9,648 nucleotides of DNA from the IMG/VR virus record IMGVR_UViG_2563366886_000004. One strand, given 5' to 3'. Below the pieces are notes generated by a model. That model was given only the letters and a program-made list of their open reading frames with translations, ran no database searches and was not told the origin of the DNA. A program made the translations under genes and the position numbers. Positions 1,167-9,648 of this stretch are shown piece by piece. Origin of the DNA: a virus. Lineage: Duplodnaviria > Heunggongvirae > Uroviricota > Caudoviricetes. Position 1 is the first letter of the stretch. Every line of letters starts with the position of its first letter.

Positions 1167-4100
1167 ATGGGTAAAGGCAGCAGTAAGGGGCATACTCCGC
1201 GCGAAGCGAAGGACAACCTGAAGTCCACGCAGTTGCTGAGTGTGATCGATGCCATCAGCGAAGGGCCGGTTGAAGGTCCGGTGGATGGATTAAAAAGCGT
1301 GCTGCTGAACAGTACGCCGGTGCTGGACAGTGAGGGGAATACCAACATCGCCGGTGTCACGGTGGTGTTCCGGGCTGGTGAGCAGGAGCAGACTCCGCCG
1401 GAGGGATTTGAATCCTCCGGCTCCGAGACGGTGTTGGGTACGGAAGTGAAATACGACACGCCGATCACCCGGACCATCACGTCGGCAAACATTGACCGTC
1501 TGCGTTTTACTTTCGGCGTGCAGGCACTGGTGGAAACCACCTCAAAGGGGGACAGGAATCCATCGGAAGTCCGCCTGCTGGTTCAGATACAACGTAACGG
1601 TGGCTGGGTGACGGAAAAGGACATCACCATTAAGGGTAAAACCACTTCACAGTATCTGGCCTCGGTGGTGGTGGATAACCTGCCGCCGCGCCCGTTCAAT
1701 ATCCGGATGCGCAGGATGACGCCGGACAGCACCACAGACCAGCTGCAGAACAAAACGCTCTGGTCGTCATACACCGAAATCATCGATGTGAAACAGTGCT
1801 ACCCGAACACGGCACTGGTCGGCGTGCAGGTGGATTCGGAGCAGTTCGGCAGCCAGCAGGTGAGCCGTAATTATCATCTTCGCGGGCGTATTCTGCAGGT
1901 GCCGTCGAATTATAACCCGCAGACGCGGCAATACAGCGGTATCTGGGACGGGACGTTTAAACCGGCATACAGCAACAACATGGCCTGGTGTCTGTGGGAT
2001 ATGCTGACCCACCCGCGCTACGGCATGGGGAAACGTCTCGGTGCGGCGGATGTGGACAAATGGGCGCTGTATGTCATCGGCCAGAATTGTGACCAGTCGG
2101 TGCCGGACGGCTTTGGCGGTACGGAGCCGCGCATCACCTGTAACGCTTACCTGACCACACAACGTAAGGCGTGGGATGTGCTCAGTGATTTCTGCTCGGC
2201 GATGCGCTGTATGCCGGTATGGAACGGGCAGACGCTGACGTTCGTGCAGGACCGACCATCGGATAAGGTGTGGACCTATAACCGCAGTAATGTGGTGATG
2301 CCGGATGATGGCGCACCATTCCGCTACAGCTTCAGCGCCCTGAAAGACCGCCATAATGCCGTTGAAGTGAACTGGATTGACCCGGATAACGGCTGGGAGA
2401 CGGCAACAGAGCTTGTGGAGGACTCGCAGGCCATTGCCCGTTACGGTCGTAACGTCACGAAGATGGATGCGTTTGGCTGTACCAGTCGGGGGCAGGCGCA
2501 CCGCGCCGGGCTGTGGCTGATTAAAACAGAACTGCTGGAAACGCAGACCGTGGACTTCAGCGTGGGTGCCGAAGGGCTTCGCCATGTACCGGGCGATGTC
2601 ATTGAAATCTGCGATGATGACTATGCCGGTATCAGCACCGGCGGGCGCGTGCTGGCGGTGAACAGCCAGACCCGGACGCTGACGCTCGACCGTGAAATCA
2701 CGCAGCCATCCTCCGGCACCACGCTGATAAGCCTGGTTGACGGAAGTGGCAATCCGGTCAGCGTGGAGGTCCAGTCCGTCACCGACGGCGTGAAGGTGAA
2801 AGTGAGCCGGGTTCCTGACGGCGTTGCCGAGTACAGCGTGTGGGGGCTGAAGCTGCCGACGCTGCGCCAGCGCCTGTTCCGCTGTGTGAGTATCCGTGAG
2901 AACGACGACGGTACGTATGCCATCACTGCAGTGCAGCATGTGCCGGAGAAAGAAGCCATCGTGGATAACGGGGCGCACTTTGACGGTAACCAGAGCGGCA
3001 CGGTGAATGGTGTCACGCCGCCAGCAGTGCAGCATCTGACCGCCGAAGTCACCGCAGACAGCGGGGAATACCAGGTGCTGGCCCGCTGGGACACGCCGAA
3101 GGTGGTGAAGGGCGTGAGCTTCCTGCTTCGCCTGACCGTGGCAGCGGATGACGGCAGTGAGCGGCTGGTCAGCACGGCCCGGACGACGGAAACCACTTAC
3201 CGCTTCACACAACTGGCTCTGGGGAACTACAGGCTGACAGTCCGGGCAGTAAATGCGTGGGGGCAGCAGGGCGATCCGGCGTCGGTATCGTTCCGGATTG
3301 CCGCACCGGCAGCGCCGTCGCGGATTGAGCTGACGCCGGGCTATTTTCAGATAACCGCCACGCCGCATCTTGCGGTTTATGATCCGACGGTACAGTTTGA
3401 GTTCTGGTTCTCGGAAAAGCGGATTGCGGATATCAGGCAGGTTGAAACCACAGCACGCTATCTTGGTACGGCGTTGTACTGGATAGCCGCCAGTATCAAT
3501 ATCAAACCGGGCCATAATTATTATTTTTACGTTCGCAGTGTGAACACCGTTGGCAAATCGGCATTCGTGGAGGCCGTCGGTCGGGCGAGCGATGATGCAT
3601 CCGGCTATCTGGATTTTTTCAAAGGCGAGATAGGGAAAACCCATCTGGCTCAGGAGCTGTGGACGCAGATTGATAACGGTCAGCTTGCGCCTGACCTGGC
3701 TGAAATCAGGACATCCATTACGGATGTCAGCAATGAAATCACACAGACCGTCAATAAGAAACTGGAAGACCAGAGTGCGGCAATTCAGCAGATACAGAAG
3801 GTTCAGGTTGATACAAATAATAACCTGAACAGCATGTGGGCTGTGAAGCTGCAGCAGATGCAGGACGGACGCCTTTATATCGCGGGTATTGGTGCCGGTA
3901 TTGAGAACACCCCTGACGGCATGCAGAGTCAGGTGCTGCTGGCGGCGGACAGGATTGCGATGGTTAATCCTGCGAATGGCAACACAAAACCGATGTTTGT
4001 TGGTCAGGGCGATCAGATATTCATGAACGACGTGTTCCTGAAACGCCTGACGGCTCCCACCATTACCAGCGGCGGTAATCCTCCGGTATTTTCCCTGACA

Positions 4101-4646
4101 CCGGACGGGCGGCTGACGGCGAAAAATGCCGATATCAGCGGTAACGTGAATGCGAACTCCGGGACGCTCAACAACGTCACGATTAACGAGAACTGTCGGG
4201 TTCTGGGAAAATTGTCTGCGAACCAGATTGAAGGCGATCTCGTTAAAACAGTGGGCAAAGCTTTCCCCCGGGACTCCCGTGCACCGGAGCGGTGGCCATC
4301 AGGAACCATTACCGTCAGGGTTTATGACGATCAGCCGTTTGACCGGCAGATTGTTATTCCGGCGGTGGCATTCAGTGGCGCTAAGCATGAGAGAGAGCAT
4401 ACTGATATTTACTCCTCATGCCGTCTGATAGTGCGGAAAAACGGTGCTGAAATTTATAACCGTACCGCGCTGGATAATACGCTGATTTACAGTGGCGTTA
4501 TTGATATGCCTGCCGGTCACGGTCACATGACACTGGAGTTTTCGGTGTCAGCATGGCTGGTAAATAACTGGTATCCCACAGCAAGTATCAGCGATTTGCT
4601 GGTTGTGGTGATGAAGAAAGCCACTACAGGCATCACGATTAGCTGA
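1167..4646 (+). CDS. J: Host specificity protein J (central tail fiber / tail tip, receptor-binding C-terminus), 1159 aa
   Basis: ATG at 1167 with GGAG 8 nt upstream; stop TGA at 4644-4646. The N-terminus [34 protein letters not shown]... and long internal stretches match my recollection of lambda gpJ (1132 aa). Size and position after K and I fit. Confidence 0.95.
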
Positions 4647-4664: not shown

Positions 4665-4692
4665 GGGCACCAGAAATGGTGCCTTTTTTATT
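4665..4692 (+). terminator. Rho-independent terminator downstream of J
   Basis: Perfect 7-bp stem GGCACCA (4666-4672) / TGGTGCC (4677-4683) with GAAA loop, followed by TTTTTTATT (4684-4692). Confidence 0.7.
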
Positions 4693-4713
4693 GCAGAAAA
4701 GCGAGAGGTAATT

Positions 4714-5313
4714 ATGCGTAAAGTTTGTGCAGCCATTTTGTCCGCAGCCATCTGTCTGGCCGTATCCGGTGCGCCTGCATGGGCGTCTGAGCAGCAGTCC
4801 ACGCTGAGCGCGGGCTATCTTCATGCCTGGACGAACGTTCCCGGCAGCGATGATCTGAACGGGATTAACGTGAAATACCGTTATGAGTTTACGGACACGC
4901 TGGGGCTGATGACGTCATTCAGCTATGCAGGAGCCAAAAATGAGCAAAAAACGCATTACAGCGATACCCGCTGGCATGAAGATTCCGTGCGTAACCGCTG
5001 GTTCAGCGTGATGGCGGGGCCGTCTGTGCGCGTGAATGAATGGTTCAGCGCGTATGCGATGGCGGGTGTGGCTTACAGCCGTGTGTCGACTTTCTCCGGG
5101 GATTATCTGCAGGTGACCGACAATACGGGGAAAACGCACGATGTGCTGACCGGAAGTGATGACGGTCGCCACAGCAACACGTCTCTGGCGTGGGGGGCTG
5201 GCGTGCAGTTTAACCCGACAGAATCCGTGGCCGTTGATGTCGCTTATGAAGGCTCCGGCAGCGGTGACTGGCGTACCAACAGTTTCATCGTTGGTGTCGG
5301 TTATAAATTCTGA
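4714..5313 (+). CDS. lom: Outer membrane protein Lom (Ail/Lom/PagC/OmpX family 8-strand beta-barrel; lysogenic-conversion moron)
   Basis: ATG at 4714 with GAGAGG 5 nt upstream. N-terminal signal peptide [28 protein letters not shown]-terminal ...[23 protein letters not shown] ends in an aromatic residue as expected for an OMP beta-barrel and matches what I recall of lambda Lom. Located between J and stf as in lambda. Confidence 0.9.
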
Positions 5314-5339: not shown

Positions 5340-5367
5340 AGCCCGCCGGTTCAGGCGGGCTTTTTTG
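5340..5367 (+). terminator. Rho-independent terminator downstream of lom
   Basis: 8-bp GC-rich stem AGCCCGCC (5340-5347) / GGCGGGCT (5354-5361) with loop GGTTCA, followed by a run of six T (5361-5366). Confidence 0.75.
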
Positions 5368-5377
5368 TGGGGTGAAT

Positions 5378-8300
5378 ATGGCAGTAAAGATTTCAGGTGT
5401 ACTGAAAGACGGTGCAGGTAAACCGGTACAGAACTGCACAATCCAGCTGAAAGCAAAACGTAACAGCACCACGGTGGTGGTGAACACGCTGGCCTCAGAA
5501 AATCCGGATGAAGCCGGGCGTTACAGTATGGACGTTGAGTACGGTCAGTACAGCGTCAGTCTGTTGGTGGAAGGATTCCCGCCGTCACATGCCGGGATTA
5601 TCACCGTATATGAGGACTCAAAGCCGGGCACACTGAATGATTTCCTCGGTGCAATGACGGAGGATGATGTCCGGCCAGAGGCACTGCGCCGTTTTGAACT
5701 GATGGTGGAAGAGGTGGCGCGTAACGCGTCCGCAGTGGCACAGAACACGGCAGCCGCGAAGAAGTCAGCCGGCGATGCCGGCACATCTGCCCGTGAGGCG
5801 GCAACCCATGCGACTGATGCTGCAGGCTCAGCACGCGCAGCCAGCACGTCAGCCGGACAGGCCGCTTCGTCGGCTCAGTCAGCGTCTTCCAGCGCAGGAA
5901 CGGCATCAACAAAGGCTACTGAAGCATCAAAAAGTGCTGCCGCTGCAGAGTCCTCAAAAAGCGCGGCAGCCACCAGTGCCGGTGCAGCGAAAACGTCGGA
6001 AATGAATGCCGCAGCATCACAAAAATCTGCGGCCACTTCTGCATCCGCCGCGACCACAAAGGCGTCAGAAGCTGCCACCTCGGCACGGGATGCGGCGGCC
6101 TCAAAAGAGGCAGCGAAATCATCAGAAACGAACGCATCATCAAGCGCCAGTAGTGCCGCTTCCTCGGCAACGGCGGCAGGAAATTCCGCGAAGGCGGCAA
6201 AGACGTCCGAGACGAACGCCAGGTCTTCTGAAACGGCAGCGGGACAGAGTGCCTCAGCTGCGGCAGGCTCAAAAACAGCGGCTGCGTCGTCTGCCAGTGC
6301 CGCGTCAACAAGTGCCGGGCAGGCCTCAGCCAGTGCCACCGCCGCCGGAAAATCGGCAGAAAGTGCCGCATCGTCTGCTTCAACAGCCACAACGAAGGCT
6401 GGCGAAGCCACTGAACAGGCCAGCGCAGCAGCGAGGTCTGCTTCCGCAGCGAAGACATCCGAAACGAACGCGAAAGCGTCGGAAACCAGCGCAGAATCCT
6501 CAAAAACGGCTGCCGCATCGTCCGCCAGTTCGGCGGCGTCATCGGCATCATCTGCGTCTGCTTCAAAAGATGAGGCGACCAGACAGGCGTCAGCAGCGAA
6601 GAGCAGCGCCACGACGGCATCCACGAAGGCGACAGAGGCAGCTGGCAGTGCGACGGCGGCAGCTCAGAGCAAAAGTACGGCGGAATCCGCGGCAACGCGC
6701 GCCGAGACAGCAGCTAAACGGGCAGAGGATATTGCATCCGCCGTGGCGCTTGAGGATGCAAGTACGACGAAAAAGGGGATAGTACAGCTCAGCAGCGCGA
6801 CCAACAGCACGTCTGAAACGCTGGCGGCAACGCCAAAGGCAGTAAAAGCAGCCTATGACAATGCAGAGAAACGTCTGCAGAAAGACCAGAACGGCGCTGA
6901 TATACCCGATAAGGGACGCTTCCTGAACAACATTAACGCGGTCAGTAAAACAGACTTTGCTGATAAGCGTGGTATGCGTTATGTGCGGGTTAACGCTCCT
7001 GCAGGTGCAATATCTGGAAAATATTACCCTGTTGTTGTTATGCGTTCTGCTGGCTCAGTAAGCGAACTGGCATCAAGGGTCATTATCACCACGGCAACGC
7101 GAACCGCAGGCGATCCGATGAATAACTGCGAGTTTAACGGATTTGTTATGCCTGGTGGCTGGACTGACAGGGGGCGTTATGCTTATGGAATGTTCTGGCA
7201 ATATCAAAACAATGAACGAGCCATCCACTCAATAATGATGAGTAATAAGGGCGATGATTTGCGCTCTGTGTTCTATGTTGATGGCGCTGCTTTCCCTGTT
7301 TTTGCGTTTATCGAAGATGGCCTGTCAATATCCGCACCTGGTGCTGATCTCGTTGTTAATGATACGACCTATAAGTTTGGGGCAACAAATCCGGCGACTG
7401 AATGTATCGCGGCGGACGTTATCCTTGATTTTAAGAGTGGGCGTGGTTTTTATGAGTCCCATTCGTTAATCGTTAACGATAACTTGTCGTGCAAAAAACT
7501 TTTTGCCACAGACGAAATTGTAGCGCGTGGTGGTAATCAGATTCGAATGATAGGTGGGGAGTATGGGGCATTATGGCGTAATGATGGCGCTAAAACTTAC
7601 CTGCTGCTTACCAATCAAGGTGATGTTTATGGTGGATGGAATACATTAAGACCGTTTGCTATTGATAACGCAACCGGCGAACTGGTTATTGGAACCAAGC
7701 TGTCTGCAAGTCTGAACGGTAACGCATTGACAGCAACAAAGCTGCAAACGCCAAGACGGGTTTCTGGTGTTGAGTTTGATGGTTCCAAAGATATTACTTT
7801 AACCGCCGCGCATGTGGCTGCTTTTGCCAGAAGGGCAACGGATACATATGCCGATGCGGATGGTGGCGTTCCCTGGAATGCCGAATCAGGCGCTTATAAT
7901 GTCACCCGCTCTGGCGACAGCTATATTCTGGTTAACTTCTATACCGGAGTCGGAAGTTGCCGGACCTTGCAGATGAAGGCGCATTACAGAAATGGTGGTC
8001 TGTTCTACCGTTCTTCAAGAGACGGTTATGGTTTTGAGGAAGACTGGGCAGAAGTTTATACCTCGAAAAATCTTCCACCAGAAAGCTACCCAGTTGGCGC
8101 ACCAATCCCGTGGCCATCAGATACCGTTCCGTCTGGTTATGCCCTGATGCAGGGGCAGACTTTTAACAAATCTGCCTACCCGAAACTTGCAGCGGCTTAT
8201 CCGTCAGGCGTGATCCCTGATATGCGTGGCTGGACGATTAAGGGCAAGCCAGCCAGTGGTCGTGCCGTATTGTCTCAGGAACAGGACGGCATTAAATCGC

Positions 8301-8779
8301 ACACCCACAGCGCCAGCGCATCCAGTACGGATTTGGGGACGAAAACCACATCATCGTTTGATTACGGCACTAAATCCACGAATAACACTGGTGCACATAC
8401 CCATAGTATTAGCGGGACAGCAAATAGTGCCGGTGCGCACCAACACAAGAGTTCCGGTGCGTTTGGTGGCCCGAACACGAGCATTTTTCCTAATGGTTAT
8501 ACTGCGATTTCAAATCCAAGCCCGTGGATTATGAGCACAACAAGCGGTAGTGGCCAGACTCGTAATGCAGGGAAGACATCATCAGATGGTGCTCATACCC
8601 ACTCGCTGTCTGGTACTGCAGCAAGTTCTGGCGCACATGCACATACTGTAGGTATTGGTGCGCATACGCACTCGGTTGCGATTGGCTCACATGGACACAC
8701 CATCACCGTTAACGCTGCTGGTAACGCGGAAAACACCGTCAAAAACATCGCATTTAACTATATTGTGAGGCTTGCATAA
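5378..8779 (+). CDS. stf: Side tail fiber protein Stf, long mosaic form (about 1133 aa from ATG 5378)
   Basis: ATG at 5378 gives [37 protein letters not shown]..., matching my recollection of the lambda Stf N-terminus. The six-frame track begins at an in-frame GTG at 5372, which has no spacer after the G-rich stretch. Stop TAA at 8777-8779. Contains an Ala/Ser/Thr-rich repeat region, a central domain with lower GC, and a C-terminal region with HxH boxes ([39 protein letters not shown]) typical of T4 gp37-like fiber tips. Confidence 0.9.
5720..6760 (+). repeat. Intragenic low-complexity / degenerate tandem repeat region of stf encoding Ala/Ser/Thr-rich modules
   Basis: A degenerate 24-nt element encoding AKTSE(M/T)NA recurs at about 5987, 6197 and 6449 (spacings 210 and 252 nt), embedded in continuous A/S/T-rich coding sequence. 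The region produces long spurious ORFs on the minus strand and in an alternative plus frame. Confidence 0.6.
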
Positions 8780-9363
8780 TGGCATTCAGAATGAGTGAAC
8801 AACCACGGACCATAAAAATTTATAATCTGCTGGCCGGAACTAATGAATTTATTGGTGAAGGTGACGCATATATTCCGCCTCATACAGGTCTGCCAGCAAA
8901 CAGTACCGATATTGCACCGCCAGATATTCCGGCAGGCTTCGTGGCTGTTTTCAACAGTGATGAGGCATCGTGGCATCTCGTTGAAGACCATCGTGGTAAA
9001 ACGGTCTATGACGTGGCTTCCGGCGACGCGTTATTTATTTCTGAACTCGGCTCATTACCGGAAAATGTCACCTGGTTATCCCCGGAAGGGGAGTTTCAGA
9101 AGTGGAACGGTACAGTCTGGGTGAAGGATACGGAAGCAGAAAAACTGTTCCGGATCCGGGAGGCGGAAGAAACAAAAAACAGCCTGATGCAGGTAGCCAG
9201 TGAGCATATAGCGCCGCTTCAGGATGCTGTAGATCTGGAGATCGCAACGGAAGAAGAGGCGTCGTTGCTGGAAGCCTGGAAGAAGTATCGGGTATTGCTG
9301 AACCGTGTTGATACATCAACTGCACCTGATATTGAGTGGCCTGCAAATCCTGTCAGGGAGTAA
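8779..9363 (+). CDS. tfa: Tail fiber assembly protein Tfa (chaperone for Stf; T4 gp38-like family)
   Basis: ATG at 8779 shares its A with the stf stop codon (TAATG), with GTGAGG 8 nt upstream; stop TAA at 9361-9363. The translation [54 protein letters not shown]... matches my recollection of lambda Tfa. Position immediately after stf fits. Confidence 0.9.
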
Positions 9364-9477
9364 TCATTGGGATTATGCCGCAGACACGTCGTATGCAGGA
9401 ACGTGCTGCGGTTAGTTTGTGAGCTTTCGATAGTGGTTGTTATTTTTGCCCTTATTTGTTCCGGAGGCCCTGGTTCA

Positions 9478-9648
9478 ATGGTCCGTCTGCCCCCTGTGGT
9501 GATGTCAGCAAAATCAGCCACTGCGCGAACCACAATAGCCCGGGAAGATGCTGAAGATCACCAGGTAAAGCTGTCAGCGCAGAAACTGGAAGAACTGCTC
9601 GCATCAATGGTTAAGGATGAGGTTGATCGCAATGATGGGATTTATTGA
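9478..9648 (+). CDS. Hypothetical small protein (56 aa), function unknown, downstream of tfa
   Basis: ATG at 9478 preceded by a strong Shine-Dalgarno GGAGG (9463-9467, 10-nt spacer); stop TGA at 9646-9648, the last three bases of the window. Translation MVRLPPVVMSAKSATARTTIAREDAEDHQVKLSAQKLEELLASMVKDEVDRNDGIY; no motif I can recognise. The longer 93-aa ORF in the track requires a TTG start at 9367 with no ribosome-binding site. Confidence 0.45.
   Translation: MVRLPPVVMSAKSATARTTIAREDAEDHQVKLSAQKLEELLASMVKDEVDRNDGIY

Follow-up and report, generated by a model that had tools for sequence, protein, structure and literature searches.

The window analysed here is a 9,648-nucleotide (nt) stretch of viral DNA (IMG/VR record IMGVR_UViG_2563366886_000004) that carries the distal tail genes of a lambdoid prophage. 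At its 5′ end lies the 3′ part of K, followed by I and then by gene J, an intact single open reading frame (ORF) on the + strand (1167–4646) that encodes the tail-tip, or central tail fibre, protein of 1159 amino acids (aa). The gene order K-I-J-lom-stf-tfa, read from the ORFs and from Pfam matches (NLPC_P60, Lambda_tail_I, Ail_Lom, phage_tail_N and Caudo_TAP), is the order found in lambda. The initial annotation of this DNA regarded the receptor-binding 3′ end of J as a swapped module that would predict a different outer-membrane receptor. We find that the distal fibre encoded by J is very probably a mosaic, put together by homologous recombination within conserved stretches located at domain boundaries, and that comparison with characterized alleles does not assign a receptor to its receptor-binding domain (RBD).

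By its sequence, J is a normal, intact tip attachment protein of the lambda family. All six of its Pfam domains score above their cut-offs and follow the lambda-family order: FNIII-A_GpJ (residues 86–207), Phage-tail_3 (330–498) and Ig_J (610–714) in the N-terminal part, then Ig_J_second (716–818), Phage_Tail_Tip (872–1000) and Ig_GpJ_C (1029–1159) in the distal part, with residues 819–871 covered by no Pfam hit. Public assemblies contain this exact protein in 133 blocks, and RefSeq labels it 'phage attachment tail tip protein J'. The four places with the exact protein that we examined, one of them in E. coli CP087578.1, are prophages that combine HK97-like head genes with lambda-like tails, and they occupy at least two chromosomal sites.

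When aligned to lambda gpJ, the protein alternates between near identity and strong divergence. Residues 1–708 are 98.0% identical and residues 709–822 are 93.9% identical, which bears out the earlier statement that the first, GC-rich part of J is close to lambda's. Identity then falls to 33.6% across residues 823–941, where the window J has 28 extra residues (within 836–866), recovers to 91.7% across residues 942–1001 (nt 3990–4170) and falls again to 42.8% across residues 1002–1159. Divergence had been placed from about codon 830 onward, and the peptides quoted in support are present in the J translation. It does start close by, at codon 823, and identity is not uniformly high through to the C-terminus, but the divergent region is not one block; the 91.7% island stands between two low-identity blocks. 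According to a maximum chi-squared (max-chi2) analysis, the first break against lambda is at nt 3633 (codon 823), where mismatch rises from 5.4% to 39%, and later breaks are at nt 3990 and 4171. The breakpoint against phage 21 (phi21) is at nt 4235, and that against VT1-Sakai is at nt 3291. Overall, the breakpoints lie at nt 3633, 3990 and about 4171–4235, with max-chi2 values of 124–818 compared to a permuted maximum of at most 26, and 0 of 1000 permutations matched the observed value for each of six reference J genes. The jump in mismatch is abrupt, from 5% to 39–46% within tens of bases.

The base composition of J also changes along the gene, but not where the homology breaks. GC content is 0.586 in 1167–3639 and 0.516 in 3640–4646, so the reported drop is real, and a spot count made for 4381–4440 is reproduced at 0.433. 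However, the step in GC (from about 0.60 to about 0.52) and in GC at third codon positions (GC3; from about 0.73 to about 0.58) occurs at nt ~3290–3330 (codon ~710–720), ~300 nt upstream of the homology break, in a region that is still 93% identical to lambda. Lambda and seven other J genes (n = 8) show the same step in the same place, with GC falling from 0.59–0.61 to 0.51–0.54 and GC3 from 0.70–0.75 to 0.56–0.60. J does not contain a compositionally foreign insert beginning at nt 3633, and we ruled out composition as the mark of a swap. The loss of long antisense ORFs after about nt 3644 had been read in the same way. An antisense ORF at 1767–3644 does exist, but lambda J has an equivalent one of 564 aa that ends in the equivalent region, and this sign was also discarded as uninformative. 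Because low GC and the loss of the antisense ORF are common to J genes, including lambda's, they are features of the J family and not marks of a swap.

We compared the J gene to those of lambda, phi21, vB_EcoS-640R1 (640R1), VT1-Sakai, Ayreon, Stx2a_1447 and 2G7b, and to a fragment from P-EibA. It divides into five segments, all on the + strand, where the domain names for the last three follow Ge & Wang (PMC11101478). Segment A1 (1167–3290; GC 0.60, GC3 0.73) encodes the hub domains and the first fibronectin type III (FNIII)/Ig domain and is lambda-type, with 94.8–96.3% nt identity to lambda, phi21, 640R1, Ayreon and 2G7b, and 73.6–74.3% to VT1-Sakai and Stx2a_1447. Segment A2 (3291–3632; GC 0.53, GC3 0.59) encodes the second FNIII/Ig domain (Ig_J_second), and the family-wide GC step starts here; it is 93.0% identical to lambda and 92.7% to VT1-Sakai, likewise to the other phages that share A1, and 68% to Stx2a_1447. 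Segment B (3633–3989) encodes the alpha-helical shaft and the upper beta-prism fibre in a non-lambda allele that includes the 28 extra residues. It is 96–99% identical to phi21, 640R1 and Ayreon, 93% to VT1-Sakai and 67% to Stx2a_1447, compared to 45% for 2G7b and 45.9% for lambda (33.6% in protein). Segment C (3990–4170), the lower beta-prism fibre ending in ...NANSGTL, is 87.8–98.9% identical to all references except Stx2a_1447 (77%) and is a probable site of homologous crossover. Segment D (4171–4646) encodes the Ig-like RBD (Pfam Ig_GpJ_C). It is 95.8–98.7% identical to VT1-Sakai, Stx2a_1447, 2G7b and 640R1, with VT1-Sakai the highest at 98.7%, and it reaches 99.2% identity to P-EibA across its last 380 nt. 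This places it in the VT1-Sakai/P-EibA type, defined by a DNA identity of 95% or more across the final ~380–480 nt of J, and its identity to other alleles is far lower (lambda 53%, phi21 62%, Ayreon 50%).

The same segments are joined differently in other phages. The J gene of 2G7b combines a lambda-type B with a window-type D, those of phi21 and Ayreon combine a window-type B with other D alleles, and in those of VT1-Sakai and Stx2a_1447 an N-terminal part with 74% identity to the window is joined to a D of 96–99% identity. Since B and D are found in several combinations, they are independent cassettes; together with significant breakpoints against six references, these combinations identify J as a recombinant gene. 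The breakpoints sit at the edges of Pfam domains, namely at residues 714/716 (between Ig_J and Ig_J_second), 818, 1000 (the end of Phage_Tail_Tip) and 1029 (the start of Ig_GpJ_C).

The comparison with VT1-Sakai adds a further observation. Its J is 74% identical to the window before nt 3291 (codon ~709) and 93–99% identical from there to the stop codon. This boundary falls where the two FNIII/Ig domains meet and where the family-wide GC/GC3 step lies. Such a pattern suggests that all J sequence from the second FNIII domain on may belong to a shared, lower-GC pool of distal fibres.

The first of the two cassettes that differ from lambda, segment B, affects the shaft. Its 28 extra residues lie just upstream of the positions equivalent to lambda residues 841–861, which switch from helix to strand upon receptor binding (PMC11101478). 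A single-sequence AlphaFold2 (AF2) model places a long helix at residues 841–887, including the extra residues, with low confidence (predicted local distance difference test, pLDDT, of 47), and the shaft region is probably helical. Segment B is no receptor determinant, because phi21 carries it (96% nt identity) and yet uses LamB (PMC11336670). Each of the two B alleles is widespread in E. coli: among 5426 complete genomes, window-type B DNA is present in 3609 and lambda-type B in 2647.

The second cassette is the RBD. Its best matches in the PDB (phmmer) are 'A8 gpJ 713' (9wca/9wcb, E = 1.5e-127), of which 9wcb contains A8 gpJ with the OmpC of EDL933, and lambda gpJ (8xcj/8xck, E = 4.6e-107), of which 8xcj contains lambda gpJ with LamB. 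We modeled residues 985–1159 with AF2 from a 16-sequence alignment, after removing frameshifted database fragments, and obtained a beta-sandwich with a pLDDT of 80. The top Foldseek hits of this model are 9wca, 9wcb, 8xck and 8xcj (TM 0.73–0.80, E ≤ 2e-17); as modeled, the RBD has the lambda/A8 fold. The A8 sequence was rebuilt from the PDB alignment.

Four loops are predicted by the AF2 model to lie at the bottom of the RBD, all encoded on the + strand. Loop L1 (4260–4301, residues 1032–1045), between strands 1 and 2, has the length of lambda's and is 4 residues longer than in phi21, A8 and phi330; its equivalent in phi330 is T918-Y921 (PMC12502783). The tip of the L2 hairpin, REHT (4392–4403, residues 1076–1079), shares 0 of 4 residues with any characterized allele. 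This hairpin is 6 residues shorter than the ENFNSNNQQS of phi21, A8 and phi330, and the A8 stretch set against the window L2 is KHENFNSNNQQSYWY. No other region varies as much within the window-type family as this L2 tip (1.09 bits per column). Loop L3, LDN (4470–4478, residues 1102–1104), shares 0–1 of 3 residues with other alleles. Loop L4 (4560–4595, residues 1132–1143) is identical to phi21 and A8 at 9 of 12 positions and to lambda at 3 of 12, and its phi330 equivalent, A1015-P1020, is a predicted contact with the OmpC rim (PMC12502783). By strand order, three further loops (DQPFD, NG and PAGH) are on the opposite face of the model. The set of bottom loops agrees with the predicted OmpC contacts of phi330 (PMC12502783) and with the 'four bottom loops' of lambda.

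The bottom loops of the window RBD are 45, 42, 30 and 23% identical to those of phi21, A8, lambda and 434, respectively, compared to 91, 82, 82 and 64% for the top loops and 65, 60, 40 and 44% for the strands. Divergence is thus gathered in the predicted bottom loops, which fits an arrangement in which the upper face is conserved and would couple to the fibre, and the receptor would be read by a variable lower face. A search for repeats, or for a template of the diversity-generating kind, that could account for the variable loops gave nothing beyond short matches at chance level, and an Rfam scan returned no match inside 3640–4646. Homologues of window positions 4119–4643 include many short or frameshifted fragments (for example, P0021, P0023, P0041 and P0045). 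Two intact variants, P0003 and P0008, have an A8-like N-terminal edge (NENCQIKGKL...DIVKTV) together with window-type loops, a sequence pattern that points to further crossovers inside the RBD.

Among E. coli prophages, the RBD allele of the window is very frequent, and lambda's is far rarer. Its DNA (nt 4267–4646) occurs in 3377 of the 5426 complete E. coli genomes (62%), with a median of two copies and mostly 90–99% identity, while the equivalent 380 nt of lambda occur in 98 of the 5426 (1.8%), all with at least 99% identity; the five of these that are named in the records are laboratory strains. The module can consequently be called 'swapped' only in a relative sense. The window allele is also present in the VT1-Sakai, P-EibA and PPompW prophages and in many long-tailed Stx2a phages. 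Protein relatives of the RBD are found essentially only in Escherichia and Shigella, and they grade from 100% down to about 50% identity. By comparison, four main J clusters have been described among lambda-like isolates (Mathieu et al., PMC6969025).

How did this J gene arise? A single foreign, low-GC module, running from about codon 830 to the end and replacing the LamB-binding part of lambda so that a different receptor is recognised, is an improbable origin. Divergence from lambda does begin at codon 823, GC is lower in 3640–4646 than upstream, and C-terminal swaps are able to retarget J (PMC11338833). However, a 60-residue island that is 92% identical to lambda divides the region, the flanking blocks B and D occur apart in other phages, and the GC step precedes the break by ~300 nt and is the same in lambda and all alleles. 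The first block is also present in phi21, which uses LamB (PMC11336670), and a difference in allele is no predictor of a difference in receptor; the RBD allele does differ from lambda's (43% aa identity), but the different receptor proposed at first does not follow from this. Less probable still is divergence without recombination, in which point mutations would have accumulated in place as host receptors imposed diversifying selection. The abrupt shift in identity speaks against it, as do the several combinations of modules and the segments of 96–99% DNA identity inside J genes that are only 74% identical elsewhere, even though the bottom loops, and L2 in particular, vary by substitutions and small indels within the window-type family and a few laboratory mutations in J alter the receptor use of lambda and phi21 (PMC11336670).

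We therefore favor recombination at conserved stretches. Two cassettes would have been exchanged relative to lambda, a longer shaft and upper fibre (codons 823–941) and an Ig-like RBD (codons 1002–1159), with the conserved stretch of the lower fibre between them (codons 942–1001, 180 nt) serving as a crossover site. Swapping J C-termini at lambda residue 964 retargets recognition from LamB to OmpC (PMC11338833), and this engineered junction appears to be the one used in nature. By analogy with lambda and A8, the protein would form homotrimers, bind to an outer-membrane protein and set off ejection. The RBD trimer would insert its four bottom loops, where specificity would reside, into a trimeric outer-membrane porin, as in the lambda-LamB and A8-OmpC complexes, and the conserved top loops would pass the opening movement on to the fibre, leading to DNA ejection; for lambda gpJ, a triggering mechanism has been described (PMC11101478). 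Several points weigh against this account. The direction and timing of recombination cannot be established from nine sequences. The structure given to segment B comes from a single-sequence model with a pLDDT of 47 and an alignment to the lambda shaft, and carries low confidence. The loop assignments derive from a monomeric AF2 model built on a shallow alignment of 16 sequences, and the top and bottom orientation follows strand order and published descriptions rather than a complex. Finally, we found no paper or structure that characterizes the window RBD allele.

The J protein can be placed among known relatives as follows. Lambda gpJ (P03749; 8XCK/8XCJ) is alike in gene position, Pfam order and Ig-like RBD fold (TM 0.76–0.80), and unlike in the shaft and upper fibre (34%, with the window 28 residues longer), in the RBD (43%) and in the sequences of the bottom loops. 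In 640R1 and PhiR55_1, which have the same RBD allele, J is 96% identical to the window's over the whole gene. VT1-Sakai (Sp15) has the same RBD allele, in a J that is disrupted. Ayreon J has the same architecture and is 96–99% identical in nt across segments A–C; its RBD, like that of the 434 host-range J (lambda h434, which uses OmpC), is 45–46% identical, and L1 and L2 in these two are longer than in the window. Phage 21 shares A and B at 95–96% nt identity and has the closest characterized RBD (68% aa); it is a LamB user that evolves the use of OmpC and OmpF, and its RBD is of the A8/phi330-like class (82% to A8). The engineered gpJ chimera A8 (9WCA/9WCB) and phi330 provide the best PDB match in sequence and fold (TM 0.73–0.77), with a similar framework, top loops and L4. 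Because the RBDs of A8 and phi330 are 99% identical, they form an allele class of their own, apart from the window. The J protein of HK97, a known LamB user, was considered as a carrier of a related RBD and rejected; its similarity is distant and confined to the fibre region (37%), and it has no related RBD.

It is reasonable to suppose, from the analogous complexes, that the RBD targets a trimeric outer-membrane porin. In protein, the window RBD is 98–99% identical to those of Stx2a_1447, 2G7b and 640R1, 68% to phi21 (LamB), 64% to A8 (OmpC, PMC11338833), 64% to phi330 (OmpC, as determined by Keio knockout and complementation, PMC12502783), 46% to h434 (OmpC) and 43% to lambda (LamB). It does not belong to the lambda type (42.8% overall and 30% in the predicted bottom loops, with matching L1 and L2 lengths), to the A8/phi330 type (64%, with L2 shorter by 6 residues and L1 longer by 4) or to the 434 type (46% to the lambda h434 J C-terminus). 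Its loops combine traits of different alleles, with L1 and L2 of lambda length and lambda's WPSGT in L1, on a framework and L4 that resemble phi21 and A8. Comparison with J proteins of known receptor, proposed earlier as a check, thus identifies the nearest relatives, but the receptor is not readable from them. The RBDs of phi21 and A8 are 82% identical and use different porins, so a similarity of 64–68% cannot assign a receptor. Likewise, since lambda and phi21 both use LamB with RBDs only 49% identical, a different RBD allele does not imply a different receptor. In the literature, we found no receptor data for PhiR55_1, PhiR46_1, 640R1, 783R2, 2G7b or the long-tailed Stx phages.

We tentatively rank OmpC as the leading candidate, at somewhat below even chances, followed by LamB as slightly less probable and another outer-membrane protein as less probable again; these estimates are approximate. 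Binding to OmpC, possibly in an allele-selective manner like the engineered gpJ 1A2 (EDL933-type and not K-12 OmpC), is supported by a framework and L4 like those of A8 and phi330 (64% overall, 9/12 in L4), by the abundance of the allele in O157 and other enterohaemorrhagic E. coli prophages, and by a screen of natural gpJ C-termini (Eligo) that yielded OmpC binders (PMC11338833). All four sequenced plaque-forming phages with the allele and an informative host were grown on E. coli C or ECOR13 and none (0/4) on K-12, although this pattern is not significant and would arise by chance with a probability of ~0.33, as estimated from host counts. AlphaFold3 puts the phi330-type hairpin ENFNSNNQQS within the OmpC barrel (PMC12502783); in the window RBD, this hairpin is 6 residues shorter and its sequence is unrelated. 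In addition, the tip of the window Stf is like lambda Stf and the Stf of Ur-lambda binds OmpC, so that two fibres would compete for one porin (PMC11338833).

Binding to LamB, as in lambda and phi21, is favored by phi21 being the closest characterized allele (68%), but phi21 acquires the use of OmpC by one mutation (PMC11336670), which makes its specificity labile. The L1 and L2 loops have lambda's length, and WPSGT in L1 (7/14 identical) is shared with lambda only, against an overall identity to the lambda RBD of just 43% and 0/4 identical residues in L2. If LamB is well conserved across E. coli, as we assume, a nearly invariant allele present in 62% of genomes would be expected to suit such a conserved receptor better than the polymorphic OmpC. 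For OmpC, 74 variants have been listed (PMC11338833). A broader possibility, which we consider rather unlikely, is that the window RBD class recognises a receptor, or a spectrum of receptor alleles, outside the lambda, phi21, 434 and A8/phi330 classes; one option would be an outer-membrane protein other than LamB, OmpC and OmpF. If so, the combination of lambda-length L1 and L2 with a framework like that of phi21 and A8 would be the signature of a separate specificity class.

Downstream of J, lom (4714–5313, + strand) encodes an Ail/Lom outer-membrane protein (Pfam Ail_Lom, E = 2.5e-123). A consensus scan detected a terminator-like GC-rich hairpin with a T-run between J and lom (4665–4694, + strand), and a second such hairpin follows lom (5340–5361). 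Terminators are annotated at the same J-lom position in phage 21 and Ayreon, and the hairpins bracket lom, consistent with lom being a separately transcribed moron.

The side tail fibre gene stf (5372–8779, + strand; 1135 aa; Pfam phage_tail_N, Gp34_trimer and Collar) is intact and is followed by tfa (8779–9363, + strand; Pfam Caudo_TAP), the gene of the tail fibre assembly chaperone; together, stf and tfa are a second host-range determinant. Over its distal 250 aa, Stf has 69% identity to lambda orf-314, with divergence greatest near the tip, and Tfa is 94% identical to lambda Tfa. In other genomes, the identical J occurs alongside an Stf of 1028 or 1052 aa, and stf therefore assorts independently of J. 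Within stf, positions 5984–6492 contain five imperfect copies of a 26-nt unit, GCAGCGAAAnCnTCnGAAACGAAYGC, at spacings that are multiples of 21 nt; at the protein level, they give a recurring motif in the Stf shaft. The 3′ coding end of tfa (9122–9320, + strand) matches Rfam RF02111 'IS009' at full length with 221.7 bits (gathering threshold 117). After tfa, positions 9364–9648 hold only short overlapping ORFs on both strands (9367–9648, +; 9219–9533, −), and at about the equivalent place, related loci of E. coli have a second tail fibre assembly gene together with an S-adenosylmethionine-dependent methyltransferase.

Host range in lambdoid phages classically depends on the exchange of modules at the C-terminus of J, as in the h434 hybrids. 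The divergence noticed in this J gene is real and its biology is ordinary, as mosaicism of lambdoid tail fibres is already known in kind. The refinement is that shaft and RBD are two separate cassettes, and that lambda, rather than the prophage in the window, carries the unusual RBD; lambda's own allele is a rarity. Exchange of the J C-terminus has already been exploited to redirect lambda particles from LamB to OmpC, via the conserved junction seen in the window J. The similarity of alleles is no guide to the receptor, as RBDs that are 82% identical use LamB or OmpC. The receptor of this widespread RBD allele is relevant both to predicting the host range of prophages and to the engineering of phage particles.

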